This document shows, one piece after another, positions 16,370 through 53,691 of a stretch of DNA of 64,000 bases. The position numbers and the translations under genes were made by a program. How positions within the stretch are numbered: the stretch's first letter is position 1; each line of letters opens with the position of its first letter. The notes under the pieces were generated by a model that was given only the letters and a program-made list of their open reading frames with translations, was not told where the DNA came from and searched no databases. The DNA comes from Escherichia phage EC148. The stretch is from the sequence record NC_106721.1; one strand, given 5' to 3'.

Positions 16370-16401
16370 TAGAATTTCCTCTCTCATTAATTTATGAACT
16401 T

Positions 16402-16430
16402 ATTATACAGAATTTTAAGGCTTAAAGCAA
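16402..16430 (-). promoter_or_regulatory. early promoter, TTGCTT-17-TATAAT
   Basis: minus-strand hexamers with 17 bp spacer, followed by conserved leader AATTAATGAGAGAGG. Confidence 0.6.
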
Positions 16431-16447
16431 CTGAATTTTTTAATTAC

Positions 16448-16879
16448 TTACCAATCGTTAACAACGCCGGAGAACTCAGAAGCAAAAACCTTTTCAAATT
16501 TCTCTGCAATTTCAGGATGATCTTTGCAGATCAGCTCAATACATGCTTCTGGAGTCATTCCTTCATCTTCAGGATCACCGTAGTATTTGTCCCAAAGATC
16601 ATCAGGGATGATATGCTCCGCCAAATCTTGGAAAGAGATTAACTGATAACGTTCTGCTTCCTCAGCGATAAGAATTTCGCACAGATCTTTATCTATATCG
16701 CTACGATAATCCGCAATTAATAGGGCATTGCAAGCATGGCATTCCCAGACCATCAAACGTTCAGAGATAGGATTAGACTTATCTTGAACGTAAGACTGGA
16801 ACAAGGTTCGGAAAGTTGCCTTAACTTGTTCAAACTTATCTGCTGCTGCGAAAACTAGAGCTTTATCAACTTTGTTCAT
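16448..16879 (-). CDS. hypothetical acidic protein
   Basis: 143 aa ORF. Confidence 0.45.
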   Translation of the reverse strand: MNKVDKALVFAAADKFEQVKATFRTLFQSYVQDKSNPISERLMVWECHACNALLIADYRSDIDKDLCEILIAEEAERYQLISFQDLAEHIIPDDLWDKYYGDPEDEGMTPEACIELICKDHPEIAEKFEKVFASEFSGVVNDW

Positions 16880-16909
16880 TTTGATTCCTTCTCATCAATT
16901 TATAAAGTA

Positions 16910-16938
16910 ATTATACAGAAACTTAGGCATTTTAGCAA
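16910..16938 (-). promoter_or_regulatory. early promoter, TTGCTA-17-TATAAT
   Basis: same cassette architecture as 16402-16430. Confidence 0.55.
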
Positions 16939-17046
16939 ATAAAACTTTTAATTAAAATGCCTAATCCTGTACCAATAGCAATACAAATGATTATAAGTAT
17001 TGCTATCGCTTGTATAATTCGTTTAATAATAGCCTCAGCTATATAC

Positions 17047-17926: not shown

Positions 17927-18801
17927 TAAAGAATCCTCTGTACACCACAGCTATCTTCCCGGAGTGTAGTAAATGTGGTGATTTTGCCCGTTTCATCATT
18001 AACTTGCGCAACCGTCAACTGCCCGTTGAAAACACCGCCAGTATCAAGGTAAACACGGTTTTTATAAAGAAGTGGGTAAGGTACTCCAGTATGCCCATGA
18101 AACACGAAATCTACCCCTTTAACTTCTGGCACTTCTACCATATATTTTTCTTTAAATCCTGAATAACGCTGGAAATACGGGTGTTCCTCACCATTTTTGG
18201 ACAAGTAGAAGCCTATTTCTTGGATTACATCTCGATCCCATAAATATGGTTCAATATGGTATCCAGGATGGTCATGTGGGTCTTCCTTAGCTGCTTCTAC
18301 TTGTGCAATAAGATTATCCCATACTGGGGTTTCTACTTCATTACCACATTCTTTGTACGTAAAAGGTACACCACCATGAACAACACCATACTTCTTACCA
18401 CGATGCCTAACAGTTAGGAATACTGGCATTTTTTCAGCCATATCTTCGGCGATATTTTTAATGGTGTCTGCATCCAGCTCTTCCATAGCCCATATACCAC
18501 CGTTATACATCCAATTAGCCCAATCTCCTGCAATCATAAATTGGTCGTGATTACCACGGACACTGATAAAATGTGGATTATACAGGAATTGGGCTAAAAC
18601 TTGTAGGTTTTGTGTGCCTCGGTCAATTAAGTCACCAACACATACTAAGCAATCTTTCTTGCTATTATACCCAGCTAATTTCAACGCATCTTCCAGCAAA
18701 TCATTGCATCCATGAATATCACCAACGAAAAACAAGTTGGCATCATCTGGCACTACTAGAGTTTTATGTACATTAAATTCTTTTTTCATAATTATTCCCA
18801 A
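17926..18801 (-). CDS. Ser/Thr protein phosphatase (PPP family)
   Basis: 291 aa; motifs GDIHGC, GDLIDRG, GNHD, HGG. Confidence 0.7.
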   Translation of the reverse strand: MGIIMKKEFNVHKTLVVPDDANLFFVGDIHGCNDLLEDALKLAGYNSKKDCLVCVGDLIDRGTQNLQVLAQFLYNPHFISVRGNHDQFMIAGDWANWMYNGGIWAMEELDADTIKNIAEDMAEKMPVFLTVRHRGKKYGVVHGGVPFTYKECGNEVETPVWDNLIAQVEAAKEDPHDHPGYHIEPYLWDRDVIQEIGFYLSKNGEEHPYFQRYSGFKEKYMVEVPEVKGVDFVFHGHTGVPYPLLYKNRVYLDTGGVFNGQLTVAQVNDETGKITTFTTLREDSCGVQRIL

Positions 18802-19041: not shown

Positions 19042-19419
19042 TTATCTCCAGTGGTTAGTATGCTTCTCAGCTTCCTCATCGTTAGGCTCAAAGACAACAT
19101 GGCAGTCAACTGCTTCCCAAAAAGCCTCACGGATTAAAGAGTTTTTAGCTGAAATGTCTAATTCTCCCCACTCTTCTAAAGTCTCTAGGTCTGTATCAAC
19201 TTCGGTATCACAGCCAACCAGCCCCAAAGAGACAACAATAGTAACGCGATCTTCACGCTGTTCGGGATAAACATCAGCATATTCCCAAGCAGCTTCTTCA
19301 ACATAATATTGTTGTTCCTTTTCTGGAAGTGACTTATACTTTTCTTCTGTAATACCCATCTCAACGGCGCGAGTACCACAAACTACATTGTTATTAATAA
19401 TTAGATATGCATAGTTCAT
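19042..19419 (-). CDS. hypothetical acidic protein
   Basis: 125 aa ORF. Confidence 0.4.
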   Translation of the reverse strand: MNYAYLIINNNVVCGTRAVEMGITEEKYKSLPEKEQQYYVEEAAWEYADVYPEQREDRVTIVVSLGLVGCDTEVDTDLETLEEWGELDISAKNSLIREAFWEAVDCHVVFEPNDEEAEKHTNHWR

Positions 19420-19530
19420 CGTAATACTCCTATTTCTTGAGTGGCAAAGATGTCCATTAATATGGCTAAAATCCCTGCAAAGATAGGTGGCGTAAGCATA
19501 TTAATGGCTCTCTTATCAATTTATATAAGT

Positions 19531-19559
19531 ATTATACCAAAATTTTTAGCAAAAAGCAA
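19531..19559 (-). promoter_or_regulatory. early promoter, TTGCTT-17-TATAAT
   Basis: conserved cassette; a 26 aa hydrophobic mini-ORF lies between it and the 125 aa gene. Confidence 0.5.
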
Positions 19560-19561
19560 GT

Positions 19562-19602
19562 AAAATAAAAGCCTGATCTGCTAAGATCAGGCTTTGTTTA
19601 TT
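19562..19602. terminator. bidirectional hairpin terminator candidate
   Basis: stem AAGCCTGATC/GATCAGGCTT with T-rich tracts on both sides. Confidence 0.5.
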
Positions 19603-20315: not shown

Positions 20316-20390
20316 AATATATACCTCTCTTAACTAATTTATGTATATATAATATAATAACTAGGGCTAAAAGTCAACTACTTTTTTATC

Positions 20391-24205: not shown

Positions 24206-24860
24206 GCGCTGCTAACCTGTCTTTATCTGATACTTTAATCATATCAGGCTCACCAGTTCCTAGTACTCCAAAGATATACTGTTCGAGAACTTGGTGTAAA
24301 CGGTATAAGTTACTTTCAATTTCCTGCCACGGAATACCTGATTGATGGAAACGAATGTTAGTCTGAATCACGAAGTTACGAACATCATCGTTATCGTTCT
24401 TTTTAATACCTTTCACATATGCAATCGGTACACGCAGTTCGGATAAGATACGTTCTGCTTTAGGTTTTGCTTCCGCGAGCAAATCACGCATTGTTTCACG
24501 AACATCTCCGCGACTCTTATCCATTAAATAAGAGCGAGCATGCAATCCCATCTCTTCCATTTTATCGAACATAGTGTCGAGGTTGAACGTTTTGAAGCTA
24601 AATGCTGGATGCCAGCAGTACAGCTCGTGTAACCAGTAAACTTCACCTGCAACAAATAGTGGGTTTACAAAATATTCGAAATCACCACGGAAAGATAGCG
24701 AACCATCACGAAATACCTGGCGAGTATGCACAATGTTCTTTTCTGCATCATCGGTTACTTTGACCAGCAACTCTTCAGTTTTACGTTCCCAAACACGATC
24801 TGGGTCGAACAAACTGTTCTGCAAGTCATACACATCGGCGAACTTAGAAATAATCCTCAT
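24162..24860 (-). CDS. hypothetical protein
   Basis: 232 aa ORF. Confidence 0.5.
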   Translation of the reverse strand: MRIISKFADVYDLQNSLFDPDRVWERKTEELLVKVTDDAEKNIVHTRQVFRDGSLSFRGDFEYFVNPLFVAGEVYWLHELYCWHPAFSFKTFNLDTMFDKMEEMGLHARSYLMDKSRGDVRETMRDLLAEAKPKAERILSELRVPIAYVKGIKKNDNDDVRNFVIQTNIRFHQSGIPWQEIESNLYRLHQVLEQYIFGVLGTGEPDMIKVSDKDRLAAHGFDTKTSFRNMAR

Positions 24861-24891
24861 ATTTAATCCTCTTGCCTCAATCTATAAACAT

Positions 24892-24920
24892 ATTATACAA
24901 AAGTTTGGGCATCTAAGCAA
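24892..24920 (-). promoter_or_regulatory. early promoter, TTGCTT-17-TATAAT
   Basis: conserved cassette. Confidence 0.55.
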
Positions 24921-25014
24921 CTAAAATTTTATTATAAAAATAGCCCAGTCGCAAAAGTGCAGGCTGGGCTTTGTCATTATTTGCTTTTGCTAGTAAGTTG
25001 ATTTAGTATCAATC

Positions 25015-26715: not shown

Positions 26716-26986
26716 CATCCTCCCCACTACAATCACGACATACATCATAATCATTGAAAGAACGTTCGTGAGCTTCACACCACCAAGAACAAGAATTGCA
26801 GAGGAACATTTCGGTTTTCTCCAGTGCTTGACCTAAAAGATCATCAGCTTCCTCAGCAGTAATCTTCAATCCGCACACATCTGCCACACGTTCTTTAATT
26901 AAACGACCTGCTTCGTGGTAAGACATACAGGTTCCAGCAACATCATGCTCAAGAACATGAACAGCACAGTCTAGACGAGTTTTCAT
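26705..26986 (-). CDS. Cys-rich zinc-ribbon-like protein
   Basis: 93 aa; CNSCSWWC ... CRDC. Confidence 0.4.
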   Translation of the reverse strand: MKTRLDCAVHVLEHDVAGTCMSYHEAGRLIKERVADVCGLKITAEEADDLLGQALEKTEMFLCNSCSWWCEAHERSFNDYDVCRDCSGEDEDE

Positions 26987-27016
26987 TTCAAACCTCTCTC
27001 ATCAATTTATAAACAT

Positions 27017-27045
27017 ATTATAGCAAGAAAAGAGAGGTTTAGCAA
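27017..27045 (-). promoter_or_regulatory. early promoter, TTGCTA-17-TATAAT
   Basis: conserved cassette. Confidence 0.55.
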
Positions 27046-27062
27046 ATGAATTATTTCAGAAT

Positions 27063-29391: not shown

Positions 29392-29421
29392 TTGGCTTCC
29401 CTCTCATTAATTTATATAAAT

Positions 29422-29450
29422 ATTATAACAATAAATAAGAGAGAAAGCAA
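29422..29450 (-). promoter_or_regulatory. early promoter, TTGCTT-17-TATAAT
   Basis: conserved cassette; leader ...AATTAATGAGAGGGAAGCCAAATG. Confidence 0.6.
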
Positions 29451-29640
29451 ATGAATTTTTAATAAAGTTTAGTCACTTCATAAACTATACTACGAGATTC
29501 TTTATTACGTTCTATTAAATTAGAATATGCTTTTTCAGCTTCATTTTTAGTATTAAAGTCTATAACGTGGGAGGTATTCGCTCTATTTGATTGACTATAC
29601 CAGATAACTACTAATAATTTAAACATAATAGTCCTTAAGT

Positions 29641-31741: not shown

Positions 31742-31786
31742 TTAGTGAACTATGATGAGGATTTCTCCTCATCAATTTATATAAAT

Positions 31787-31815
31787 ATTATAACAAGAAA
31801 TTAAGCATTAAGCAA
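31787..31815 (-). promoter_or_regulatory. early promoter, TTGCTT-17-TATAAT, feeding the tRNA/structured-RNA unit
   Basis: conserved cassette; leader contains palindrome GATGAGGAGAAATCCTCATC. Confidence 0.55.
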
Positions 31816-31833
31816 CTGCGTTTTTCTTGAAAT

Positions 31834-32468: not shown

Positions 32469-32500
32469 TTTGCTTTCCTTCTCAACACTTTATAAGGTAT

Positions 32501-32529
32501 ATTATACAGAGAATTAAGCATAATAGCAA
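32501..32529 (-). promoter_or_regulatory. early promoter, TTGCTA-17-TATAAT
   Basis: conserved cassette upstream of the lipoprotein gene. Confidence 0.55.
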
Positions 32530-32679
32530 ATGAATTTTTAATAAATTTACTTATTGTGTAGGCCACCTGGAGGCTACCAACCCCACGGCTGACAAAGAAG
32601 TTTGCGAGACCTCTCTTAAGTGCCAGAATAGACCCGCCGATCTATCGGAACCTACATAATAAGTAAACTTTATAGTGTC

Positions 32680-36311: not shown

Positions 36312-36332
36312 GAATTTATAAGATATATTATA

Positions 36333-36851
36333 TTAGAAATTTAGCTTCATAGCAAGAAAATTTTTCAAGTTTTCGGTAGACATCTCATCCACATCTACGG
36401 GAGAAACAAAGCCGTTTAATTTTCTAGCAAATTTTTCACCCGCAGGATCGTTGTCTCCGACAGCTACCAATTTAAAAGGTAATAATTTCAGTTGCTTTAA
36501 TAACGCTTTTCCTGGAGAAGAACCTAACATTGCCAGGGCTGGATAACCAGCGTTATGTAGCGCAACTGCCTTAAATACAGATTCAGCGATCAATACTACT
36601 TTTTCATCTCCATTGAGAGTTTCTAGTCCCCATACACACTGGGTAGTAGAATAAGTAAAATATTTAGCTTCAAAGGGACACTTACCATGACCTTTTGGAG
36701 CAGAAGGATTATACGTCTGATAGCCTCGCAACATCCCGGAGAAGTCATACAACGGGACTGTTAGCCATCCTTCCGGACTTAACCAGCAATGATATTTATC
36801 TGTATCAAATCCTCTGGATAAGAGGTGCTGTGTTAGCTCATCAACATTCAT
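36333..36851 (-). CDS. Toprim-like domain protein (putative)
   Basis: start taken at MNVDELT; C-terminal E ... VGDNDPAG resembles a Toprim acidic motif. Confidence 0.3.
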   Translation of the reverse strand: MNVDELTQHLLSRGFDTDKYHCWLSPEGWLTVPLYDFSGMLRGYQTYNPSAPKGHGKCPFEAKYFTYSTTQCVWGLETLNGDEKVVLIAESVFKAVALHNAGYPALAMLGSSPGKALLKQLKLLPFKLVAVGDNDPAGEKFARKLNGFVSPVDVDEMSTENLKNFLAMKLNF

Positions 36852-36881
36852 ATTTGGTTCCTCTCTCAAATTTATAGATAT

Positions 36882-36910
36882 ATTATACAGAGAATTTAGC
36901 ATTCAAGCAA
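36882..36910 (-). promoter_or_regulatory. early promoter, TTGCTT-17-TATAAT
   Basis: conserved cassette. Confidence 0.55.
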
Positions 36911-37026
36911 TCAAATTTTTTAACTTTTTAGAGGAAAATCATAGGGCACTTAAGGGTAGCAGATAAGTGGGGAGGACCAAAATTTGTGACCCCACTAAAA
37001 ATCCGGGGGCAATTTTTAAAGACCCC

Positions 37027-40493: not shown

Positions 40494-40718
40494 GCAGTGT
40501 TACTACATAAGTGATTTCCACACCCCACTATTTATAAATCAGAGAAGAGTTTAGGGGAGAGGTTTCAGACGCCTCATTTTACACGTTCTAGCCACTAACC
40601 GGGATTGCCGCCCCCTGTGTACTAGTTTTACAACTAACCCACCGACTCTATTCAATGCGCTCCGGTTGGGATTCTGCACTCAGCGTAATCGGCTCGCTGT
40701 TCCCTAATTTATGAATAT

Positions 40719-40747
40719 ATTATACAGAATTTATAAGCATTTAGCAA
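40719..40747 (-). promoter_or_regulatory. early promoter, TTGCTA-17-TATAAT
   Basis: conserved cassette. Confidence 0.55.
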
Positions 40748-40755
40748 ATGAATTT

Positions 40756-41190
40756 TTAGAAAAATTCACTAGCAATCAAAGCAGTTGTTTTACCGTCATA
40801 ACGTCCGGGAAATTCTGCCTTAATAGTTTTCATTAATAGAGCTTTGGTAATACCTGGGTTTAATTTAACCAGTTCTGCAAAATACTCACGAATCTGAACC
40901 TCAGTCAGTTGACTTGGCTGATACTCTTGCAGCATGGAATAAAGCAGTTGCTCATAGTCTACATCAGTAGGAACTTCCATACCAACTTTAATAGCGCGTT
41001 GTTTTGCATTTTCTAGAGCCTTAATCTGAGCTTTCAGATAGGCTACGAACTCGGTTCGAGTAACAATGTCTTTATCAATACGTTGCAGATCACCAATCAT
41101 GGTCTGAAGATTAAGTGCCCGTTCCTTATCACCGTGAGTACGTGCTAGACTAAGTAGTCCACGAAGGGTCATTAGAATATTTTCACCCAT
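40756..41190 (-). CDS. hypothetical protein
   Basis: 144 aa ORF. Confidence 0.45.
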   Translation of the reverse strand: MGENILMTLRGLLSLARTHGDKERALNLQTMIGDLQRIDKDIVTRTEFVAYLKAQIKALENAKQRAIKVGMEVPTDVDYEQLLYSMLQEYQPSQLTEVQIREYFAELVKLNPGITKALLMKTIKAEFPGRYDGKTTALIASEFF

Positions 41191-41362: not shown

Positions 41363-41391
41363 TTCGCTTCCTCTCATTAATTTATGAAAGT

Positions 41392-41420
41392 ATTATACAG
41401 AAATTTAAGTAGCTAAGCAA
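41392..41420 (-). promoter_or_regulatory. early promoter, TTGCTT-17-TATAAT
   Basis: conserved cassette. Confidence 0.55.
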
Positions 41421-41428
41421 GTAAATTT

Positions 41429-41896
41429 TTAAGTTTTAGTGACAACAGGTTTATAGAATGTATGTCCCTTAATCTTAGTTGTTTTCTTAAACTTCTTTGT
41501 CCAGTAAGGTTTATCTTTACCACTATGGAAGTATAGTGCTCCATATGTAGGATCTTGTGGTAAATCAACGTAGTATATCACTCTAGCTAAATTCTTAGCA
41601 GTTTGCCAAGCCTCATCAGTTTTATCAACTTTTGGTCTCTTAGATACCCAAGAGAACTGGTTAGACTGATATACTACTTTACAGTAGGAATCTGGGAATT
41701 TACCGGAGTTTACACGGTTTTTAGTAACATGTGCAATCGCCGTCATTCCCTTTATGCCCTCACCACGACTTTCGAAATAGATATTTTTAGCAATGCAATC
41801 TATTTCTTTTGCATCGTGCGATGCCTGACTACTAAAGCTGAAGGTAAGGGCAGCTACTAAAAGCAAAGCTGCCTTCATTCTTTTTACTCCTGCCAA
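41429..41896 (-). CDS. secreted cell-wall hydrolase, SleB/Hydrolase_2-like
   Basis: 155 aa; signal peptide; ESRGEG ... AIAHVTKNRVNSGKFP ... QSNQFSW matches the SleB-family signature. Confidence 0.5.
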   Translation of the reverse strand: MAGVKRMKAALLLVAALTFSFSSQASHDAKEIDCIAKNIYFESRGEGIKGMTAIAHVTKNRVNSGKFPDSYCKVVYQSNQFSWVSKRPKVDKTDEAWQTAKNLARVIYYVDLPQDPTYGALYFHSGKDKPYWTKKFKKTTKIKGHTFYKPVVTKT

Positions 41897-42201: not shown

Positions 42202-42231
42202 AATAGCCTCGTTTCATCAATTTAAAAATAT

Positions 42232-42260
42232 ATTATACAGATAACTTAGTAAATTAGCAA
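42232..42260 (-). promoter_or_regulatory. early promoter, TTGCTA-17-TATAAT
   Basis: conserved cassette. Confidence 0.55.
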
Positions 42261-42643
42261 ATACATTTTTAAATTGTGAAACTAGTAAACCGATAAACAG
42301 CCTAGAGGCGCCACAGGCCATATCTTATGAGCCATGTACCTTTGATCTAGGGTTTGAATCATCAACGAATACTTTGCATCTTTTAGCTTTAGAAGTTTAG
42401 AAGTTTGAGTTCTTTAAACTTTTCAGCTTTCATACTTAAATGTTGATCTTTGAAGTTGTGTCGGTAATATCAACGACGCTTTGTTCTTACGTGTCAGCTT
42501 AAAAGGCTGGTGTAATAAACATAATCTCCAATAGATTATACTTTATAGTATGGTCAGCGGTCTTATTTAACCTCGTATTTCAACCGCTGCTGCGAGGTAA
42601 GATGCTTGGGCTTTCGTCTACCGATTTACTAGCTTTTAAATTA

Positions 42644-43282
42644 TTACTCTACTTCAATGAAGGTAGAGGCGTTAGACTCGGACAGAACAAAGTCAACATT
42701 TGTTGCAAAGTCCTGGTATTCCTCGTCATGCTGCTTAATCAACTTCTCCAGTTCCAGCGGATCAATCAAGAATGGAGTATTCTTGAGTTCCAGCAGGTTG
42801 AGTTGCATTTTAACTTCATCTTCGGAAGTTTTCTTATCACGGGTAGCCATGCTATCCTGCAAACGCTCATATTTAGCATCAAACTGTGCTTTCTGCGTAT
42901 TAAACTTAACCGTAGCGGCATGGAACTGCTTACGCATGTTAGCCAGCAGTTGAGCTTTAAGCTCCATAGAACGCTTAGCTTCAATTGCTTCCGCAACAGT
43001 CATTTTACGAGAACCGATCTCAACGATTGTTTCTGCATTGCTCTTAATCAGAGCAGATTTAATACGATCACGCTGAGACATCATATCCAGCAGAGACTGG
43101 AAATCAGTCTTAATACGAGTAGACAGATCAGCTACTTCGATTGCAGCGCCAACTACAACCTGGTTTTTATCCTTACCTTCACCAACAGCGATCAGAAGCT
43201 GCTGTTCAGTAGCTTTACGGATTTTAGCTTCCAGAGATTTGATAGTTGCTAGAGCGCGAGTTTTAGAAATACGAGTAGTCAT
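42644..43282 (-). CDS. hypothetical protein
   Basis: 212 aa; strongly biased codons (CGT, CTG, GGT); overlapping plus-strand ORF 42602..43252 judged spurious. Confidence 0.5.
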   Translation of the reverse strand: MTTRISKTRALATIKSLEAKIRKATEQQLLIAVGEGKDKNQVVVGAAIEVADLSTRIKTDFQSLLDMMSQRDRIKSALIKSNAETIVEIGSRKMTVAEAIEAKRSMELKAQLLANMRKQFHAATVKFNTQKAQFDAKYERLQDSMATRDKKTSEDEVKMQLNLLELKNTPFLIDPLELEKLIKQHDEEYQDFATNVDFVLSESNASTFIEVE

Positions 43283-43518: not shown

Positions 43519-43558
43519 ATTTGTTTTCCTTTTATTGTTTTCTCAAATTTATGAATAT

Positions 43559-43587
43559 ATTATACAGAATTTTGGAGCCGGAAGCAA
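43559..43587 (-). promoter_or_regulatory. early promoter, TTGCTT-17-TATAAT
   Basis: conserved cassette. Confidence 0.55.
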
Positions 43588-43588
43588 A

Positions 43589-44290
43589 TCAAATTTTCAT
43601 TTTTTCGATCATAGCTGCAACACAATAGCTTTCAACTAAGGCATCAAATGCAGGATCATGCTTAACCGGATAGATCCCATAACGAATGGTGTCCATCTTC
43701 TCCATTTTAGCTTTTGCCCAGCTAATACCTTCAGCCTCTAGATCTTTGTAACTATAATCAGCTTGCATCCAGAGATTACGAAGAGATCGAACATTGCCCA
43801 AATTCCAGAATTTCCACGGAACTACCTCTTCATTGGTTCCAGCATGGAATGTGTTTGCAGAGTAGATAGTCATATCAAACTCTGGGCCATTACCATAATA
43901 CAAAGCATTTTCGCCTAGAGCCAACTCCATAATATTTTGAGCCATAGAGAAGGCAGCATAGTTTGAGCCAAATTTATTAGTGCAATGATGTTTACCATTT
44001 TGGAAGGCAATCAGTTTTGGATTACGTTCCTTCATAGCTTCCATAATGTGAATAGCAGACGGGCTATTTTTAGCTTGATCCATCCAGAATGCTAGAGTAG
44101 ATGCTGTAACTTTAGCACCAGAATTAAGCTGATCTTGTACATCCAAAGTAACAAATACTAGATCAGGGTCTTTATCAATTCCATGCATAGCCACAAAAGC
44201 GAAAGAAGGCATTGCGATATGAGTAGTACCACAATCTCCTGGAGTTCCCAGAGATTCAATATCTAGCATACCAAATGGTTTTACTTTCAT
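43589..44290 (-). CDS. hypothetical protein, possible DEDD-type exonuclease
   Basis: 233 aa; N-terminal MLDIESLGT resembles Exo I motif (D-x-E); other motifs not confirmed. Confidence 0.3.
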   Translation of the reverse strand: MKVKPFGMLDIESLGTPGDCGTTHIAMPSFAFVAMHGIDKDPDLVFVTLDVQDQLNSGAKVTASTLAFWMDQAKNSPSAIHIMEAMKERNPKLIAFQNGKHHCTNKFGSNYAAFSMAQNIMELALGENALYYGNGPEFDMTIYSANTFHAGTNEEVVPWKFWNLGNVRSLRNLWMQADYSYKDLEAEGISWAKAKMEKMDTIRYGIYPVKHDPAFDALVESYCVAAMIEKMKI

Positions 44291-44318: not shown

Positions 44319-44555
44319 TTAAAGAGCTGTCTCTTTAATAGACTCCCACTTCTTGGGGTCTTTAAAACCAGGGAGCATATCCTCACTGACATCCCAGTTC
44401 TCTTCCATAGAGAAGTCGGGCCATTCATCCCAACTACCTTCCAACTCTTCATAACAGGTATCCATTACCTCATGACTAGAAAGTCGTGTATAATCCCTAG
44501 CTGACTTATGGGTGGTAGCACGGTTAAAATCATTCTTTGCCACAAAATTACGCAT
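44319..44555 (-). CDS. hypothetical acidic protein
   Basis: 78 aa ORF. Confidence 0.4.
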   Translation of the reverse strand: MRNFVAKNDFNRATTHKSARDYTRLSSHEVMDTCYEELEGSWDEWPDFSMEENWDVSEDMLPGFKDPKKWESIKETAL

Positions 44556-45392: not shown

Positions 45393-45430
45393 TATTTGTT
45401 TTCCTTTTTGTTTATCAATTTATGAAGTAT

Positions 45431-45459
45431 ATTATACGAGAATTTGAAGCGTTTAGCAA
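45431..45459 (-). promoter_or_regulatory. early promoter, TTGCTA-17-TATAAT
   Basis: conserved cassette. Confidence 0.55.
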
Positions 45460-45467
45460 ATGAATTT

Positions 45468-45917
45468 TTAATTTATTAACTGTAAGCTTCTTTTAATTTC
45501 AGACCTTACTTGCATCAAAAGGACTCCTAAAGTATTATCCCCGATGCCTCGGCAAACACCCCAATATGTATCTCCCCAGGTATTTCCTTCGATCAAAGTT
45601 GCATTTTCTGTTGCTAACAGTTTATCTCTTAAATCAGGAATTGCAAACTTTAATCGTAAAAGCTCTAGCATTACATCATCTTTTACTTTATCCCAGTCAG
45701 AGCGTAGGGTTAATTTACGTCCTCTACGTTTAGCAACTCCTGCATTTAGGGAGCGGAGTACATGAGCTACATCATCTTTTTGGTCGGATTTCATAGCCTG
45801 AAAAGCATGTTCTACAGTATCAGCATGCCATATCTCATTTAGATATTCGAAAGTAATTGGTGATAAATAAAAGTTAGATAAGAAACTATAAGTACCTTTA
45901 AATTCAGTAATCTTCAT
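45468..45917 (-). CDS. NADAR / YbiA-like (DUF1768) domain protein
   Basis: 149 aa; LSNFY ... EHAFQA ... GR ... W ... ENxWGDxxWG ... G.GxNxLG ... VR matches the NADAR family pattern. Confidence 0.65.
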   Translation of the reverse strand: MKITEFKGTYSFLSNFYLSPITFEYLNEIWHADTVEHAFQAMKSDQKDDVAHVLRSLNAGVAKRRGRKLTLRSDWDKVKDDVMLELLRLKFAIPDLRDKLLATENATLIEGNTWGDTYWGVCRGIGDNTLGVLLMQVRSEIKRSLQLIN

Positions 45918-46198: not shown

Positions 46199-46225
46199 AA
46201 AGCCCTCCTCACTTTCAATACGAAT

Positions 46226-46254
46226 ATTATACTAAATTATAGGGCTTTAAGCAA
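46226..46254 (-). promoter_or_regulatory. early promoter, TTGCTT-17-TATAAT
   Basis: conserved cassette. Confidence 0.55.
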
Positions 46255-46275
46255 GAGAATTTTTTAATTTATTTA

Positions 46276-46764
46276 TCACATCTCAGCCATTTCAGCTTCA
46301 GTAATAACTGTATTACATAAGGCGTCTACAGCCTCATTACCACTAATACCAGAATGTCCTTTAACCTTAATAAAGGTAGGGTTAGTATTATGAAAGTTGA
46401 TATACTGCTGTGTTAATTTAAATGCTTCCTGCCAAAGTTCTAGATTAAGAGGAACTTCACCATCTGCTTTCTTCCAGCCTTTCCTTTGCCAAGAAAACAT
46501 CCAACTTTCCATGCCATTTTTGCAATAAGCAGAGTCAGTATAGATAGCAATTGGTCTATTATCTTTTTTAACAGACCAACGTAGGGCTTCTACGATAGCT
46601 GTGAGTTCCATCTCATTATTTGTAGTTTTAGGATTATAACCAGATTTAGAACCTAAACGATCGTCGTTATCATCATAGACAATAAAACCCCAAGCACCTG
46701 GACCTGGATTAGACTTACAAGCACCATCTGTGTAAATGTGGAAAACCGACATTATACCTCCCAA
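46276..46764 (-). CDS. rnh: ribonuclease H
   Basis: 162 aa; RNase HI motifs YTDGAC, GPG, TNNxxEL, YTDS, KVKGHSG..GNE..D. Confidence 0.7.
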   Translation of the reverse strand: MGGIMSVFHIYTDGACKSNPGPGAWGFIVYDDNDDRLGSKSGYNPKTTNNEMELTAIVEALRWSVKKDNRPIAIYTDSAYCKNGMESWMFSWQRKGWKKADGEVPLNLELWQEAFKLTQQYINFHNTNPTFIKVKGHSGISGNEAVDALCNTVITEAEMAEM

Positions 46765-48700: not shown

Positions 48701-49842
48701 AAGAAATCTCCAAATTCATTACCCAGATCTTTCAGAGTATCAGTAGAGGTCTCAGTTACCTGACCTACACGGTAGGCTGCACCAATCTGGATTTCTTGTG
48801 GAGCAGGCTGTAGAGAAGTAGTATCCAACCAGTTCATAATCCACGGAATAGGGTTTTTGGTGATTACTGGTAAATGACTAGGCCATTCTACACCGATGTG
48901 CATAAATGCATTACGTCCCACAAAATACAGATATTCTTCTAGAAGTTCTGCATTCAAGCCAATCAGACTACGACCTTTGAAAATGAAATGACCCCATTCA
49001 ATTTCAGTTTTCAGAGTTTTCAGGAGCTGTGCTGGTGCTTTAGCCACTGCTTCATCTACCAGATCTTTGTCAAATTGCTGAAACATAATCTGGATGATTG
49101 CTTTGGACATCTGAGTGTGCAGAGCTTCATCTTTAGCGATTAATTGCAGATTTTTAGCAATACCTTGCAGAATATCGTTCTCTGCTAATGCAAAGGTACA
49201 TGCAAAGGATGCGTAAAACTGCATTGCTTCCAGACCATAGATCGCAAAGTAAGCGTCTAATAGTTTAGCCTGAGTTTCACGTTTAACTTCAGGGAACTCA
49301 GTTTCTGGATATGTATTGTCGCCACGATGATCGCGTACTGCGATGAAATACTGACCTAACTGGTACAGTTCATCGAATAGTTCAACAGAATCAGCGATGC
49401 GCGCGAATGCTTCTTGGTTTTTGGTTACAGAATCAATAAATTCTGCTGGATCAGTCAGCACATTACGAATAATATTGCTATAAGCACGACTATGCAGGTC
49501 TTCAAAATAGCTCCACTGTTTGAGCATACCTTCCAATTCTGGACGACTTACAAGCGGCATAATAGCTGCTTCAGGGGCACGACTGATAAAGGAATCAGTT
49601 TGAGTTTGCCATGCTAAGTTCAGGAGTGTAATTTCCTGAATTTCTCGTGGGAGATTAGGCCATTGTTTCTTATCTGCTTCCAGACTGATTTCAGTTTCAG
49701 TCCAAAATTGAGAGCGCTGCAGAAGTGCCAGACGTTCTAGTTCTGGATGTGCTACACGTACATAATCTGCGATACCGAGAGAATCTCCCAGGAAAAGGTC
49801 GGCGTTAGTATGATCCCAATTCAGGTTTAGTAAAGTAGTCAT
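48697..49842 (-). CDS. nrdB: ribonucleotide reductase class I small subunit
   Basis: 381 aa immediately downstream of NrdA; size and position typical. Confidence 0.65.
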   Translation of the reverse strand: MTTLLNLNWDHTNADLFLGDSLGIADYVRVAHPELERLALLQRSQFWTETEISLEADKKQWPNLPREIQEITLLNLAWQTQTDSFISRAPEAAIMPLVSRPELEGMLKQWSYFEDLHSRAYSNIIRNVLTDPAEFIDSVTKNQEAFARIADSVELFDELYQLGQYFIAVRDHRGDNTYPETEFPEVKRETQAKLLDAYFAIYGLEAMQFYASFACTFALAENDILQGIAKNLQLIAKDEALHTQMSKAIIQIMFQQFDKDLVDEAVAKAPAQLLKTLKTEIEWGHFIFKGRSLIGLNAELLEEYLYFVGRNAFMHIGVEWPSHLPVITKNPIPWIMNWLDTTSLQPAPQEIQIGAAYRVGQVTETSTDTLKDLGNEFGDFL

Positions 49843-49873
49843 TGATTTTCCTCTTTCTCACTATTTCAGGAAT

Positions 49874-49902
49874 ATTATAGCAAATCTGGTAGCGATTAGC
49901 AA
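49874..49902 (-). promoter_or_regulatory. early promoter, TTGCTA-17-TATAAT
   Basis: conserved cassette between nrdA and nrdB. Confidence 0.5.
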
Positions 49903-49948
49903 GTAAAATTTCAAAGAAAAAGGAGACCCGAAGATCTCCTTGTTTTTA

Positions 49949-52384
49949 TTAAATAGTACAACCGCCTGATGCACAACCAGCTGCTTCTTCTCCAGCACCA
50001 CCACCATTTGCGGTGTTGAAGTTAGCATAATACCAAGTTTTCCACCCGTATTTAACAGCAGTCATGAAATCACGAACTACTACTGGGCCAGGAATAATTT
50101 CATTCTCAAACTTGGTGTAGTCGTAGTACATATTAGTACTAACAGACTGGCTGAAGAATTTCTGCATAGTTGCTACCCATTTGATCCACTCGATACGATC
50201 TACATCATAAGCCAATTTATAGCTCATTAACGTTTCCCAATCGGTTGCACCTGGAGCAATTGCAATTACTTTATTTACTGCACTACCCTTGATAGATACA
50301 ATCTTACGAGGTGGTTCGATAGAGTTAGTAACACCTAACAGAACAGAAGAACTTTCTCCCGGCATCTGAGCAGTCAGAACAGAGTTACGCATACCATATT
50401 TCAGAATATCTGCACGCAGAGACTCCCAGTCCATTTCTAGACCTACGGATACCAGCTCATCAACAGTTTTCTTGTACGTGTCGATTACCAGAATTCCTTT
50501 AGATGGTTTAGTACGATCAAACCACTCACATGCACCCTGTTCCTTAGCCAGGCGTACAGAGGCTTTATGCAGGAAGTAAGACAGTTTTTCAGCCTCACGG
50601 TGGATCCAGTTACGAGCTTCAATACCTTCGTAAGCCAGACCTTCTGCTGCCATTGCACCTGCTGCGTTCATTAGGCCAATACCGACATTACGACGTTTCT
50701 TAGCCGTATATTCCATAGTTGGGAACGGATAATCCTGAATTTCAATAATTGTATCAACGAATTTCAGAAGGATGTAGCAAGTTTTTTCCCACTCAGCCAG
50801 AGATTCCATGCGTCCAAGTACAACACCACCTAAGTTACACAGAGATACTTCACCAATATCCTCCGGCTTCATTTGATCAAGCTGCTCTTTTGTCTTGTAC
50901 AGCTCTGTAATGTGATGGAACGGGCGTGTAGGCTGAGTAATTTCAACACAAAGGTTTGTCATACGGATCGGATCAAGGAAGTTACCGTGACGATTAGATT
51001 CCCCAATGTGGTGAGCATACATACGTCCTGTTTCCATTCGGATACGTAGCCAAGTATCTAGGATTTCTTTTGCAGAGACTTTAGGAGCTGCAGGAACTGT
51101 TTTTCCTTCGTGGTCGATCTTTGTAAGAGATGCCACACGTTTCTCCGCTGCCACGTAGATTTCTTCAAATTTAGCCTCGTCATCACTATAAAACGCTTCA
51201 TGAACTTCTGGAGCATAGAAGTATGACATTAGCGTAATATCTTCGTTTTTAAGATAACGTTTTAACAAAAGATTGTTAAAGCTCAGAGAATAATCCATCT
51301 TATCGATTTTATTCTCATCTGTAGCACGTTGTTGCTTAACCTGCATCAATTGAATGATTTCAGGGTCGAAGTATGGATAAGACACTGTAGCAGAACCACC
51401 ACGAGTTTGCTGAGTATTGGCCTTTACTGAGCGGTCAATGTGTCGATAATACGGCAGTTTTCCGGAATGCGGGAATGCCCCATTTCGCACCGGATCAGCA
51501 ATTGATCGGCTTTCAAGATGATACCCGATTCCCGCTCTGGCTGCGACCATTTTGAAGACGATGTGCTCGGCGGTGTCGATTGAATCCAACGTGTCAGTGG
51601 AATCCACGAGACAGCAACTAGCAAATCCACGGTCACTAGAGCGCAGACCAACCAGTGGCGGCGTAGGAACGTTGATTTTGTGGAGCGACATTGCGTTGTA
51701 GAGGTCGATTGCATCTAGAATTGTCCAGTTAGGTTGAGATAACATCGCCATTGCCATACCCATGTAGGCGAATTGCGGGGTTTCATAAATTTCACCAGTG
51801 GCTATATTACGACGGGAATACTTATCAAAGAACTGCTTCAGCCCACCACTAGTAAAAAGACGGTCACGATCATGGTCGATAACCTGATTCAGAGCTTCAA
51901 ATTGCTCATCGGTAATCCATGCACTCATGTCTTCCCATGCACCTACGCTAACCATGTGGTCATGGAAGAAGCGTAAAGAAGGTGGTTCGAAAGAGTCATA
52001 AAGGCGTTTACGCATTTGCGCAAGACGTAATTCCTTTGCTGGCACATCGTATGCTGGATTATCTTTAATAAGACTTTCAGCAGCTTTAATTAATGCATCC
52101 ATCAGAGTGTCGGAATCTACAACCCCTTTAGGCAGAGTTTTTTGAGCAGCCATAGTAATGGCTGACCAGCTTACATCAACTGTTTTGCAACCATACTCTG
52201 CCCAACCATTGATTTTTTCAGGAGCAAAGTCTTCTACAGTACCGTCACGTTTAATTACTTTTTCAATGCGATGGCTCATTTGGCTTTCCTTTTTATAGTT
52301 ATCAGGATTTAAGGAATATTCTACTTTATTATCGGTCATTAGGCAAATAAAATTTTCTGATAGAAAAGGCCCGAGTATTTTCAT
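49949..52384 (-). CDS. nrdA: ribonucleotide reductase class I large subunit
   Basis: 811 aa (true start probably an internal Met); ATP-cone-like N-terminus, active-site NLCVEI, C-terminal Cys pair. Confidence 0.8.
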   Translation of the reverse strand: MKILGPFLSENFICLMTDNKVEYSLNPDNYKKESQMSHRIEKVIKRDGTVEDFAPEKINGWAEYGCKTVDVSWSAITMAAQKTLPKGVVDSDTLMDALIKAAESLIKDNPAYDVPAKELRLAQMRKRLYDSFEPPSLRFFHDHMVSVGAWEDMSAWITDEQFEALNQVIDHDRDRLFTSGGLKQFFDKYSRRNIATGEIYETPQFAYMGMAMAMLSQPNWTILDAIDLYNAMSLHKINVPTPPLVGLRSSDRGFASCCLVDSTDTLDSIDTAEHIVFKMVAARAGIGYHLESRSIADPVRNGAFPHSGKLPYYRHIDRSVKANTQQTRGGSATVSYPYFDPEIIQLMQVKQQRATDENKIDKMDYSLSFNNLLLKRYLKNEDITLMSYFYAPEVHEAFYSDDEAKFEEIYVAAEKRVASLTKIDHEGKTVPAAPKVSAKEILDTWLRIRMETGRMYAHHIGESNRHGNFLDPIRMTNLCVEITQPTRPFHHITELYKTKEQLDQMKPEDIGEVSLCNLGGVVLGRMESLAEWEKTCYILLKFVDTIIEIQDYPFPTMEYTAKKRRNVGIGLMNAAGAMAAEGLAYEGIEARNWIHREAEKLSYFLHKASVRLAKEQGACEWFDRTKPSKGILVIDTYKKTVDELVSVGLEMDWESLRADILKYGMRNSVLTAQMPGESSSVLLGVTNSIEPPRKIVSIKGSAVNKVIAIAPGATDWETLMSYKLAYDVDRIEWIKWVATMQKFFSQSVSTNMYYDYTKFENEIIPGPVVVRDFMTAVKYGWKTWYYANFNTANGGGAGEEAAGCASGGCTI

Positions 52385-52421
52385 ACCCAGGCCCTGTATA
52401 TTACCAGTCTAGCTTTTTAGC

Positions 52422-52644
52422 TTATTCAATTACTTTAGTTCTAGCTACTTCTTTTAATAGAATATCTATGGAGGTGCTCAACTCGTTATAATTGAATGGT
52501 TTATTTGGATTTGAGGTTACAATTTTCCACGCTAGGGTTGTCTTAGGACTTTCTTCCCCTTCCTTACGTGTAATCATATTAGCAGCACTCAGTGAAGTAC
52601 GATGTATTTTAGTTTTACGGCTCAGATGAACGACGTTTCCCATA
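52422..52644 (-). CDS. hypothetical protein
   Basis: ORF track 52422..52712 overlaps phoH; start moved to ATG at 52644 with GGAAGGTG RBS. Confidence 0.35.
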
Positions 52645-53406
52645 TTACACCTTCCCCATGTCTTTAAAGATGTCATAGAATGCTTTAGACTCAACAGAAC
52701 GAACGTTATCAATCAATTCGATCATTGAGAATGGGGCATTTTCGTATTTCTCATAGACTTCCATAAGGAGTGCTAGACCTGAGTCACCTTTAATGTCTTT
52801 CTGAGCTATATCTCCGCAGATAATTAAACGGCAGTCTTGCCCTACACGAGTTAGAAGACAAATCATTGCCTCAACGGAAATATTCTGAGCTTCATCGACA
52901 ATTACATAGGAGTTGTTGAAAGTTCTGCCACGAGCATGTTCGACAGCCAAAAATTTAATTTTCTGACGTTCGACATATCCCTTATAGGCATGATCGCCGA
53001 TGGCCCATTTCATACCATCAGCTATTGGCTCCAACCAAGGCTCTAGCTTTTCTGCTAGATCACCAGGAAGCATACCAAGAGACTTACCTAGAGGTTCATT
53101 AGGACGTACGAGGATCACTTGCTCAATATCTGAGTGAATGTCTACGAGTTCCTGAGCTGCAAGAACGGACGGAATAAAGGTTTTACCAGTACCTGGCTCA
53201 CCGATGCCCACAGTCACTGTGTTGTTCTTGATCATATTGATATATGATTTTTGCTCGCGGTTTTTACCTACTAGGGATTTAGCAACTGGGTTAGCGTAAT
53301 CATTAGAAAAATCAGCCTGAATTACGTTATTCTCATACTTGTTGCCACGCTTTCTTGAACCATTGCGGTTCTCTCTTTTTTGACGTGCTTTTCCCATAAA
53401 TAACAC
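52645..53406 (-). CDS. phoH: PhoH-like ATPase
   Basis: 253 aa; Walker A GEPGTGKTF and PhoH-like layout. Confidence 0.7.
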   Translation of the reverse strand: MLFMGKARQKRENRNGSRKRGNKYENNVIQADFSNDYANPVAKSLVGKNREQKSYINMIKNNTVTVGIGEPGTGKTFIPSVLAAQELVDIHSDIEQVILVRPNEPLGKSLGMLPGDLAEKLEPWLEPIADGMKWAIGDHAYKGYVERQKIKFLAVEHARGRTFNNSYVIVDEAQNISVEAMICLLTRVGQDCRLIICGDIAQKDIKGDSGLALLMEVYEKYENAPFSMIELIDNVRSVESKAFYDIFKDMGKV

Positions 53407-53470
53407 TCCTATAGTGTACTTCGCTAACAGAGGATCAACAAAAAGATCTTGTTTATCAACTTACAAATAT

Positions 53471-53499
53471 ATTATACCAATATATACAGTAAAAAGCAA
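53471..53499 (-). promoter_or_regulatory. early promoter, TTGCTT-17-TATAAT
   Basis: conserved cassette in the divergent intergenic region. Confidence 0.55.
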
Positions 53500-53691
53500 C
53501 TACAATTTTAAATAAGCCTATGATATTGCATTTAAATAAAAAATTTGCTTGCTTTTAACGTGAGATGTGTGATACTAGATAATCATTTTATATCGCGTGC
53601 ACGAGTGCGTGATTATACAATTTTTAATAGAGATTGGCAAATAAAATTTTTTGACTCAGATCATGTTACAGAACTTTATAGTAAAATATTG

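Follow-up and report, generated by a model that had tools for sequence, protein, structure and literature searches.

Promoter cassettes in the window

The window, a 64,000-nucleotide stretch of Escherichia phage EC148 (NC_106721.1) that is 99.9% identical to the T5-type coliphage Escherichia phage T5_ev212, contains a repeated cassette in which an A-rich tract lies upstream of TTGCTW and TATAAT, set 17 bp apart, and these are followed by an A/T-rich discriminator, ATAAATT at +1 and a purine tract (GAGAGG). A search for TTGCTW-N17-TATAAT with at most one mismatch gave 28 matches, compared with 2.26 expected from shuffles, and a PWM covering -46..+18 gave 26 sites above 20 bits in the window. 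The same PWM never reached a score of 5 in 20 Markov-shuffled windows, and no cassettes were found in shuffled sequence. Twenty-two of the sites lie on the minus strand within 16378-53510, in agreement with an earlier note on this DNA that had counted about 20 at 16395-53500; the remaining four are on the plus strand outside this range (55667, 58909, 62452 and 63478). All 26 are colinear, one-to-one, with 'regulatory promoter' features of the T5 RefSeq record NC_005859, including P-N25, P-N26, P-H207, P-D/E33, P-F30 and P11-P16, confirming that they are promoters with attached leaders. They share positions, order, strand and sequence with the T5 early promoters (Bujard laboratory; NC_005859). 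In the descriptions that follow, +1 positions outside N25 are assigned by analogy with N25.

On the minus strand, the first cassette (16378..16441; TTGCTT at 16430-16425, TATAAT at 16407-16402, inferred +1 16395) corresponds to an unnamed T5 promoter (16245..16319), and its leader ATG (16387) reads in the same frame as the real start (16369) of an 83-aa T5.032 homologue. The P-F30 equivalent (16886..16949, +1 16903), whose -10 matches the T5 'promoter P-F 30' (16779..16784) at a BLAST offset of -131, has an out-of-frame leader ATG (16895) and a real start at 16879 (143 aa). The cassette at 19507..19570 (+1 19524) is fused to an upstream terminator hairpin and followed by a 27-codon ORF from 19499; its counterpart, T5 promoter 18550..18624, overlaps T5 terminator 18607..18637. 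A weaker cassette (TTGACT/TATTAT, 20325..20388; T5 promoter 19368..19442) has a full ATAAATT leader, with +1 at 20342 and a start at 20315 (143 aa). The cassette at 24868..24931 (T5 promoter 24443..24517) lies 3' of a terminator, with +1 at 24885 (ATAGATT) and a start at 24860 (232 aa). The best leader match, ATAAATTGATGAGAGAGG, is found at 26993..27056 (T5 promoter 26722..26796; +1 27010), where a leader ATG at 27002 (4 codons) precedes the start at 26986 (93 aa). The leader ATG of the P11 equivalent (29398..29461, +1 29415), at 29407, reads in a different frame from the start at 29391 (97 aa).

Several minus-strand cassettes serve tRNA or stable RNA genes. The P13b equivalent (31763..31826, +1 31780) is RNA-only: ATAAATTGATGAGGAGAAATCCTCATC is the 5' hairpin of stable RNA 2H, and tRNA-Ala and tRNA-Leu follow. 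In the P13a equivalent (32477..32540) the leader is shifted by 1 nt (TATAAAGTG) and the start is at 32468 (65 aa), while the P14b equivalent (34005..34068, +1 34022) precedes a 10-codon ORF from 33999 and then tRNA-Cys. The RNA-only P14a equivalent (TTGCTC, 34720..34783) has a divergent leader, CTAATTTGG, and drives the tRNA-Tyr/Glu/Trp/Phe cluster. The P15c equivalent (35091..35154) consists of TTGCCT (35144-35139), an 18-bp spacer, TATAAT (35120-35115) and +1 at 35108, with a leader ATG at 35100 and a 17-codon ORF from 35084. In the RNA-only P15b equivalent (36303..36366), ATAAATT is at 36319 and tRNA-Ser starts some 9 nt past the start site, at 36311. The P15a equivalent (36858..36921, +1 36875) leads to a start at 36851 (172 aa), and the P16-17 equivalent (40695..40758, +1 40712; ATAAATTAGGGAAC), without a Shine-Dalgarno site, is RNA-only (RNAX region, tRNA-Arg).

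The P-D/E33 equivalent (41368..41431, +1 41385) has a leader ATG at 41377 (6 codons) and a start at 41360 (56 aa). The minus-strand series continues with 42208..42271 (T5 promoter 43067..43141; +1 42225, TTAAATTGATGAAACGAGG; leader ATG 42217; start 42201, 105 aa), 43535..43598 (T5 promoter 44393..44467; +1 43552; a longer, 34-nt leader; start 43518, 60 aa) and the P-H207 equivalent (45407..45470; ATAAATT at 45423; 32-nt leader; start 45392, 171 aa). Divergent leaders occur at 46202..46265 (ATTGAAAGTGAGGAGGG; T5 promoter 46337..46411; start 46198, 94 aa) and, 3' of a terminator, at 49850..49913 (GAAATAGTGAGAAAGAGG; T5 promoter 50061..50135), which leads to an nrdB homologue (start 49842, 381 aa); T5 has hegH between this promoter and nrdB. 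The last in-range cassette (53447..53510; T5 promoter 53638..53712; +1 53464, GTAAGTTGATAAAC) has a long leader to a phoH homologue.

The plus-strand cassettes are at 55656..55719 (+1 55702; start 55724, a 126-aa T5.100 homologue), 58898..58961 (TTGCAG; +1 58944, ATTGAATTGAGAGA; a long leader before the origin-binding protein gene), 62441..62504 and 63467..63530. The third is the orthologue of P-N25, the classic 'T5 promoter' (+1 62487, numbered after PMC7472727; start 62512, a 234-aa D2 homologue): TATAATAGATTCATAAATTTGAGAGAGGAG is identical in T5, with point differences elsewhere, the -35 being TTGCAT in the EC148 window and TTGCTT in T5. The fourth is the P-N26 orthologue, with leader ATAGTTTGAAAG, a 51-nt UTR and a start at 63564 (D3 homologue).

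Conservation and make-up of the leader

Column information content exceeds background at -45..+18 and is zero from +19 on. When 29 promoters were picked by TTGNNN-N17-TATAAT alone, the leave-one-out leader score was positive in 25 of them, compared with 3 of 72 other TATAAT sites (Mann-Whitney p = 1e-9). Thus, conservation does extend beyond the promoter, as had been proposed. Mean pairwise identity is 0.57 at -46..+18 and 0.51 at -6..+18 (chance, 0.26); at 57%, the cassettes form a consensus family and are not the near-identical copies described earlier, and the exact 20-mer ATTTATAAATTGATGAGAGG has only five matches at three or fewer mismatches. The hexamers and 17-bp spacer given in the earlier note hold for the consensus, but not for three in-range cassettes: TTGCTC (34772), TTGACT/TATTAT (20377), and TTGCCT with an 18-bp spacer (35144).

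We find that the conserved leader is composed of three parts and is not a single post-transcriptional element. Published numbering of P-N25 places TATAATAGATTCAT at -12..+2 (PMC7472727), so the A of cATAAATT is +1. By this numbering, the 20-mer opens with four bases of discriminator that are not transcribed; then come ~9 bases made up of the start-site motif and the initially transcribed sequence, and it ends in a purine-rich tract that is the Shine-Dalgarno site of an unstructured 5'UTR. This 5'UTR measures 21-27 nt in 17 of the 19 mRNA cassettes. The purine fraction at +1..+20 is 0.73 (background, 0.53), with 0.74 C per 20 nt (background, 3.6). GAGAGG-type tracts are found at promoter-proximal genes and at none of 85 internal gene starts.

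A leader ATG is present at +9 in 8 of 26 cassettes and seems to be incidental to the TGATGAGAGG variant rather than a conserved start codon. Of the two ORFs said to be over-extended by such an ATG, this is correct for 16118..16387 (89 aa, compared with 83 aa from the real start at 16369), the only ORF so extended. ORF 36333..36902, at 189 aa, is also over-extended, but its initiating ATG (36902) lies inside the promoter spacer (TTGCTTgaATGc, ~-27) of the P15a equivalent.

The module is absent from the T5 late promoters P-G25 and P-J5 and from the pre-early promoter P-H22, in a comparison set of only 2-3 late and 1-3 pre-early promoters; this agrees with the report that an ATATT discriminator is common to early promoters (PMC7472727). 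It also occurs in the Demerecviridae phages Spivey (Klebsiella), PM135 (Proteus) and Thalassa (Vibrio), and a search with the consensus gave 8586 places across 661 phage records. Direct observation thus covers the anatomy of the sequence, its orthology to the promoters annotated in T5, its specificity for the early class and its conservation across genera.

Probable early promoters fused to a short 5'UTR

Taken together, these results make it very probable that the repeated cassettes are host-sigma70-dependent early promoters of a T5-type phage (Demerecviridae), each fused to a very short 5'UTR. Because of this fusion, promoter, start-of-transcript sequence and ribosome-binding site form one ~64-bp unit, which, as part of this explanation, heads each early operon. 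The observation is real yet ordinary, since the cassettes are T5-type strong early promoters, long known.

The A-rich, UP-like tract at -45..-37, TTGCTW, the 17-bp spacer and the consensus TATAAT would recruit E. coli RNA polymerase very tightly, while the A/T-rich discriminator ATATTY, 6-nt -10-to-start spacing and Y(-1)A(+1)T(+2) would set the start site and facilitate melting. Escape would be the limiting step at promoters with such tight binding, and the conserved, C-poor initially transcribed sequence, in which A/U predominates at +1..+9 and purines at +10..+18, may allow fast escape and high productive output. On mRNAs, the purine tract (GAGAGG/GAGGAG, 5-9 nt before ATG) would double as the Shine-Dalgarno site, and the unstructured A/U-rich 5' end, within the ribosome footprint, probably aids 30S/S1 binding. 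Both the start site and the part that the initially transcribed sequence plays in escape are taken from literature on P-N25 alone; the remaining cassettes presumably behave like it. In that work, replacing P-N25 +3..+20 reduced full-length RNA to about one tenth and raised abortive products (PMC12464699), and N25 is described as escape-limited, with escape favoured by purine-rich initial sequences (PMC12464699, PMC5961368). The P-N25 downstream region of these accounts (Kammerer et al. 1986; Hsu laboratory; via PMC12464699, PMC5961368) is our conserved +1..+18 block, sharing its purine-rich, C-poor character and native to an escape-limited promoter. The published work concerns one promoter, whereas here the block is a family-wide consensus over 26 promoters that recurs in three other Demerecviridae genera.

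Some features count against this explanation. ATAAATT itself is A/T-rich, not purine-rich. General work on initially transcribed sequences detected no motif apart from purine content (PMC5961368); that this specific word persists in phages of enterobacteria and of Vibrio alike is therefore a stronger conservation than 'purine-rich, easy escape' would lead one to expect. Moreover, restriction of the module to the early class also fits a regulatory target.

Such a target would arise if ATATTY-ATAAATT were mainly a cis element for phage-encoded temporal control, read by a T5 factor on RNA polymerase or DNA (e.g. the gpT5.026, A1, D5 or C2 proteins) that switches early promoters on or off as a class. 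Besides the class pattern, which rests on the few late and pre-early promoters noted above, gpT5.026 lowers RNAP binding to the N25 -12/+2 strand ~8-fold, a gene 026 amber mutant has raised early and lowered late transcripts, and the authors of that study proposed that it is the ATATT discriminator by which early promoters are told apart (PMC7472727). The module recurs across the family, as does a gpT5.026 homologue, e.g. in Klebsiella and Proteus phages. However, effects of gpT5.026 on transcription in vitro are two-fold or less (PMC7472727), and P-N25 needs no phage factor to be very strong in uninfected E. coli (PMC12464699). The apparent 8-10 bp palindrome TTTATAAA is also asymmetric (0.17 bits at -2 and 1.08 at its partner, +4; C at -1 in 7 of 24 cassettes), which argues against a dimeric DNA-binding site. 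We regard temporal control as the main role of the module as rather unlikely. We give a considerably smaller chance to the idea, essentially that of the earlier note, that the conserved RNA 5' end (AUAAAUUGA) acts post-transcriptionally on mRNAs, as an S1-binding/standby translational enhancer or 5'-end stability determinant. Since the leaders are A/U-rich, unstructured and of near-fixed length, +1..+9 does fall where 30S/S1 touches the mRNA, 16-25 nt before the start codon, and the Shine-Dalgarno tract lies directly 3' of the motif. Nevertheless, the tRNA/stable-RNA-only cassettes (31815, 36355, 40747) keep ATAAATT without a Shine-Dalgarno site, even where, as at P15b, the tRNA begins ~9 nt after +1; this argues against ribosome standby and for a 5' part that works in transcription or at RNA 5' ends generally. 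The motif is at 0 of 85 internal gene starts and thus tracks promoters, not ribosome-binding sites, and of the window's 42 copies of ATAAATT, 17 lie 4-8 nt 3' of a TATAAT. No structure was predicted for the leader RNAs (mean z = +0.09) and none matched an Rfam family, leaving the suggested RNase site without support; the earlier interpretation as a whole is partly supported.

It is hardly probable at all that sigma70, retained by a -10-like element ((T/C)ATAAA at -1..+5, or TAAATT at +2..+7), causes a promoter-proximal pause at ~+10-20 for translation coupling or factor loading. The cassettes do share a consensus -10, a 6-nt spacer and Y R(+1) Y, the marks of strong, escape-limited E. coli promoters, with the sigma70 proximal-pause promoters G1p and G1d, which combine strong recruitment with limited escape, and a TATAAT-like hexamer begins 11 bp past the real -10, the spacing reported for pauses of 16-20 nt (PMC7876045). 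This likeness is one of sequence, and the hexamer is imperfect: at -1..+5 it does not end in the T of TATAAT, and 7 of 24 cassettes have C at -1. In an A/T-rich stretch, such matches are expected by chance. None of the papers searched links N25 to sigma-dependent pausing, and native N25 escapes fast on supercoiled DNA (half-life 0.3 min; PMC12464699).

Comparison with other cassette systems

The arrangement resembles the PeSL (promoter-early stem-loop) cassettes reportedly described in T4-type phages by Arbiol et al. in 2010: many short early-promoter units, often just 3' of a terminator hairpin, flanking small variable genes. Homology breakpoints relative to T5, however, are no commoner at cassettes (9 of 26) than at other gene starts (22 of 76; p = 0.63), and so give no evidence of cassette-driven gene shuffling. 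Homing-endonuclease insertions present in T5 are missing from the window, and some downstream genes differ from those of T5 or are shortened, with ORFs of 10, 17 and 27 codons after the P14b, P15c and 19559 cassettes, respectively.

Conserved promoter cassettes and their T5 counterparts

A search of the window for TTGCTW-N17-TATAAT with up to one mismatch gave 28 matches, compared with 2.26 expected from shuffles, and a PWM scan of the window found 26 sites scoring above 20 bits, whereas the best of 20 shuffled windows scored below 5. Twenty-two of the 26 cassettes belong to the minus strand and fall within 16378-53510, and four, at 55667, 58909, 62452 and 63478, belong to the plus strand (a single number denotes the position of a cassette's -35). 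The -35, spacer and -10 pattern is exact in 19 of the 22 minus-strand cassettes, and the remaining three deviate by a single change or by having an 18-bp spacer. Both count and range agree with an earlier note made from the sequence alone, which had reported about 20 near-identical cassettes at 16395-53500. "Near-identical" is an overstatement: the mean pairwise identity of the cassettes is 0.57, and the exact 20-mer given in that note as the conserved leader (the stretch after the -10) has only five matches at three or fewer mismatches.

In an alignment of 24 sites on the -10 hexamer, columns carry information in excess of background between -45 and +18 and lose it at +19 and beyond. An A-rich, UP-like tract, AAAAAwTTnA, occupies -45 to -37, with A in 21-23 of the 24 sites at -45 to -42 and T in 20-23 at -40 and -39. 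Between the conserved hexamers TTGCTw and TATAAT, the spacer has conserved C at -25 and -24, A at -21 and -20, T at -16 and G at -13. Downstream are the discriminator columns A-6, T-3 and Y-1, ATAAATT at +1 to +7, and a purine tract at +11 to +18 with GAGAGG at its centre; the consensus of discriminator and start is ATaTtT-ATAAATT. As a control for ascertainment bias, promoters were picked by TTGNNN-N17-TATAAT alone and the 24 nt after the -10 were scored leave-one-out. The leader score was positive for 25 of 29 promoters and for 3 of 72 other TATAAT sites (p = 1e-9), and one of these three exceptions is the cassette at 35144, which has an 18-bp spacer. The cassette observation, including conservation beyond the promoter, is thus confirmed, and the interpretation placed on it is supported in part. 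A degenerate copy of the cassette is present in the pre-early (terminal repeat) region at 5385-5460 (+), where TTAGCC-N17-TATAAT, with the -10 at 5425-5430, is followed by atacatATAAATTAATGAGAAATAATAAC. It combines a high leader score (17.4 bits) with a weak -35, and neither a Shine-Dalgarno site nor a gene comes directly after it; a relic and an unannotated weak promoter are both conceivable.

The T5 RefSeq record, NC_005859, has colinear 'promoter' features of 75 bp, many of them under historical names, and BLAST offsets and sequence comparison place every cassette within such a feature. On the minus strand, the named counterparts are P-F30 (16938), P11 (29450), P13b (31815), P13a (32529), P14b (34057), P14a (34772), P15c (35144), P15b (36355), P15a (36910), P16-17 (40747), P-D/E33 (41420) and P-H207 (45459), and on the plus strand they are P-N25 (62452) and P-N26 (63478). 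The other cassettes correspond to unnamed annotated T5 promoters, and the matched cassette is also annotated as a promoter in some other phage records, such as that of BF23. Judged from position and sequence, the cassettes are identifiable as the long-known family of T5 early promoters, already annotated in the reference genome. T5 early promoters rank with the strongest that E. coli RNA polymerase is known to use; P-N25 serves as a standard model of promoter escape and underlies the commercial 'T5 promoter' expression vectors. For N25 and several further T5 promoters, the literature establishes E. coli RNAP-sigma70 transcription from the predicted +1, with early timing (PMC7472727). Our literature search found no genome-wide start-site data for T5.

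Leader anatomy and start codons

Klimuk et al. give positions -12 to +2 of N25 as TATAATAGATTCAT (PMC7472727), and this numbering places +1 at the A of cATAAATT. The 20-mer of the earlier note therefore resolves into three parts, namely four untranscribed discriminator bases, a start-site motif with initially transcribed sequence (ATAAATTGA), and the purine tract. In 17 of 19 mRNA cassettes, 21-27 nt separate +1 from the start codon, so that the conserved block makes up nearly the entire 5'UTR. Leaders have a purine fraction of 0.73 versus 0.53, and C occurs 0.74 times per 20 nt versus 3.6. The purine tract is complementary to the 3' end of 16S rRNA and lies 5-9 nt before the start codon, with duplex energies of -5.6 to -12.2 kcal/mol for 16 promoter-proximal starts. 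On mRNAs, the purine tract doubles as a Shine-Dalgarno site.

A general Shine-Dalgarno preference of the phage is rejected as the explanation: the 85 internal gene starts carry neither ATAAATT nor GAGAGG and have ordinary GGAG/AGGA-type sites instead, which links the leader to promoters. A structured RNA leader, such as a riboswitch, attenuator or thermosensor, is likewise rejected: when 19 leaders were folded from +1 to codon 6, the mean MFE was -2.5 kcal/mol and the mean z score +0.09. An Rfam search of the window returned tRNAs only and no curated leader family. Among the cassettes that drive only tRNA or stable RNA, the P13b, P15b and P16-17 equivalents keep ATAAATT and have no Shine-Dalgarno site; at P15b, tRNA-Ser starts about 9 nt past +1. 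The leader of P14a, also an RNA-only cassette, is divergent. ATAAATT occurs 42 times in the window, and 17 of these copies sit 4-8 nt after TATAAT. Taken together, retention on RNA-only cassettes, absence from internal starts and proximity to TATAAT indicate that the 5' module tracks promoters and not ribosome-binding sites. The conserved stretch is not the single shared post-transcriptional element suspected from the sequence. The P13b-type transcript opens with AUAAAUUGAUGAGGAGAAAUCCUCAUC (31780-31750, minus strand), which folds into a perfect 8-bp hairpin; this is the 5' end of what in T5 is the 'stable RNA 2H' region.

An ATG is found at +9, as TGATGAG or TAATGAG, in 8 of 26 cassettes. Only at the cassette at 16430 does this ATG read through into the gene in frame, which lengthens the product from 83 aa to 89 aa; the shorter form equals T5.032 in length. 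The other leader ATGs open frames of 4-23 codons, one of them on the RNA-only cassette at 31815. The leader ATG is rejected as a functional start or upstream ORF, given its presence in only 8 of 26 cassettes, its inconsistent frames, its occurrence on an RNA-only cassette and the lack of an upstream Shine-Dalgarno site. Two ORFs had been thought over-extended because of a leader ATG, and this holds for the one at cassette 16430. The other, 36333..36902, starts instead at an ATG within the promoter spacer (TTGCTTgaATGc); its real start is 36851, which gives 172 aa, the length of T5.076. For annotation, the cassettes are of value in that they mark operon heads and true start codons and explain both over-extended ORFs. 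Very short minus-strand ORFs of 10, 17 and 27 codons follow three cassettes, at 33999-33967, 35084-35031 and 19499-19416, respectively. At P14b and P15c, the genes annotated in T5 measure 42 aa (T5.070) and 91 aa (T5.072), respectively; gene decay, a different gene or a small peptide could each account for the short ORFs.

Promoter escape and the early-class module

RNAP is held extremely tightly by N25, for which promoter escape is the limiting step, and the 'antiDSR' variant of N25, in which +3 to +20 is replaced, yields about one tenth of the full-length RNA and more abortive product (PMC12464699; PMC5961368). Purine-rich initial sequences favor escape because pyrimidine-rich ones bias RNAP to a pre-translocated, backtrack-prone state (PMC12464699; PMC5961368). 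Strong E. coli promoters that are escape-limited are marked by a consensus -10 and, after a spacer of 6 nt, a start motif of the form Y R(+1) Y (PMC7876045). In the 24 aligned sites, the start motif is T/C at -1, A at +1 and T at +2. The N25 escape data and the promoter marks make the best-supported mechanism one in which the unit would combine a strong sigma70 promoter with an initial transcript optimised for escape and, within a minimal and unstructured UTR, a Shine-Dalgarno site. The published NAD-capping consensus has purines at -2 and -1 and S at +2, and the cassettes, with T/C at -1 and T at +2, do not match an NAD-capping promoter.

The ATATT-ATAAATT module is missing from the T5 late promoters P-G25 and P-J5 and from the pre-early promoter P-H22. 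This extends the remark of Klimuk et al. that an ATATT discriminator is common to early promoters (PMC7472727). For a cross-genus comparison, we selected promoters by TTG-N20-TATAAT only and scored them with the leader PWM trained on the window, using the 99.9th percentile of each genome's background as the threshold. In Klebsiella phage Spivey (Sugarlandvirus), 80% of promoters exceeded this threshold, as did 57% of those in Proteus phage PM135 (Novosibvirus). Variants with TTGCTA-N17-TATAAT-agttacATAAAGTTGAGAAACGGAGA and ATAAATTGA are present in Vibrio phage Thalassa (Ermolyevavirinae). A search with the consensus cassette found 8586 places in 661 phage records, at most 22 per genome, with hosts typical of Demerecviridae. 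ATATTY-ATAAATT(G/T)A at -6 to +9 is kept in early promoters of Demerecviridae infecting Enterobacteriaceae, Morganellaceae and Vibrionaceae, a distribution indicating that the module is old. Its conservation family-wide as an early-class module may be the only part of these observations not stated before.

General studies of initially transcribed regions find no sequence motif other than purine content (PMC5961368). ATAAATT is A/T-rich and not purine-rich, and its conservation across host families is not fully explained by general rules for initial sequences. The T5 protein gpT5.026 weakens RNAP binding to N25 -12/+2 about 8-fold, and its loss raises early transcripts and lowers late ones (PMC7472727); homologues in Spivey and PM135 are 44% and 26% identical, respectively, to the window's protein, which is encoded at 14099-14560. 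It is conceivable, though we think it improbable, that ATATTY-ATAAATT(G/T)A is a class-recognition element and not a by-product of promoter strength, read by a phage factor that acts on RNAP, for example of the gpT5.026 family, which loosens RNAP contacts at -5/+2, and times early transcription, or else that it is a sigma70 -10-like pause or retention signal. A sigma70-dependent pause element would consist of a -10-like hexamer about 11 bp past the -10 and would give a pause at +10 to +20; here, (T/C)ATAAA at -1 to +5 equals TATAAT at 4-5 of 6 positions, with the final T missing. A symmetric operator built on the palindrome TTTATAAA is unlikely since only the downstream half is conserved (0.17 bits at -2 versus 1.08 bits at +4). 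The early-class specificity of the module and its conservation from T5 to Vibrio phages could guide experiments on gene-class switching in T5.

Surroundings of the cassettes

Ends of T5-homology HSPs fall near cassettes 11 times, compared with 2.9 expected under a uniform model, and often exactly at cassette edges, as might be expected of PeSL-like mobile or recombinogenic cassettes. However, the excess disappears when other gene starts serve as the comparison (9 of 26 cassettes versus 22 of 76 other starts, p = 0.63), and we therefore see no evidence of cassette-mediated shuffling. G+C-rich hairpins with a T-run directly precede several cassettes, at 19570-19610, 24931-24975 and 49913-49950 (-) and at 55620-55656 (+). 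At these, the terminator T-tract merges into the A/T-rich upstream tract of the promoter, and in T5 RefSeq terminator and promoter features overlap at the matching sites. The divergent control region of the phoH/nrdD homologues, at 53605-53640 (-) and 53700-53750 (+), contains a TTGCCA-N17-TATAAT promoter with the G+C-rich, palindrome-like CACGCACTCGTGCACGCG downstream in place of the ATAAATT leader. The nrdD promoter is of the TTGACA type, and neither of these two early-region promoters is of the cassette kind.

Compared with Escherichia phage T5_ev212, a 20-kb slice of the window (26000-46000) shows 99.9% identity along its entire length; with many T5-like phages, the identity is 96-99%. The window holds the left terminal repeat with the pre-early genes, the minus-strand early region with a cluster of 21 tRNAs, and the first plus-strand replication genes. 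Two tRNA-like Rfam matches on the minus strand, at 40424-40495 and 36142-36216 (35.5 and 40.3 bits), were not called by ARAGORN; in T5 these sites are annotated as RNAX and tRNA-Ile2. The HNH homing-endonuclease genes hegH and hegI, present in T5 at 49536..50060 and 62318..62836, are absent here (window positions 49867-49872 and 62206-62213), and in T5 hegH is inserted at the start site of the cassette that serves as the nrdB promoter. OR848676.1 and other short 'Listeria phage' database records carry T5-type sequence, one of them with 96.7% protein identity to gpT5.026, and some 'Campylobacter phage' records also match the 20-kb slice. Such entries appear to be mislabelled or contaminated.
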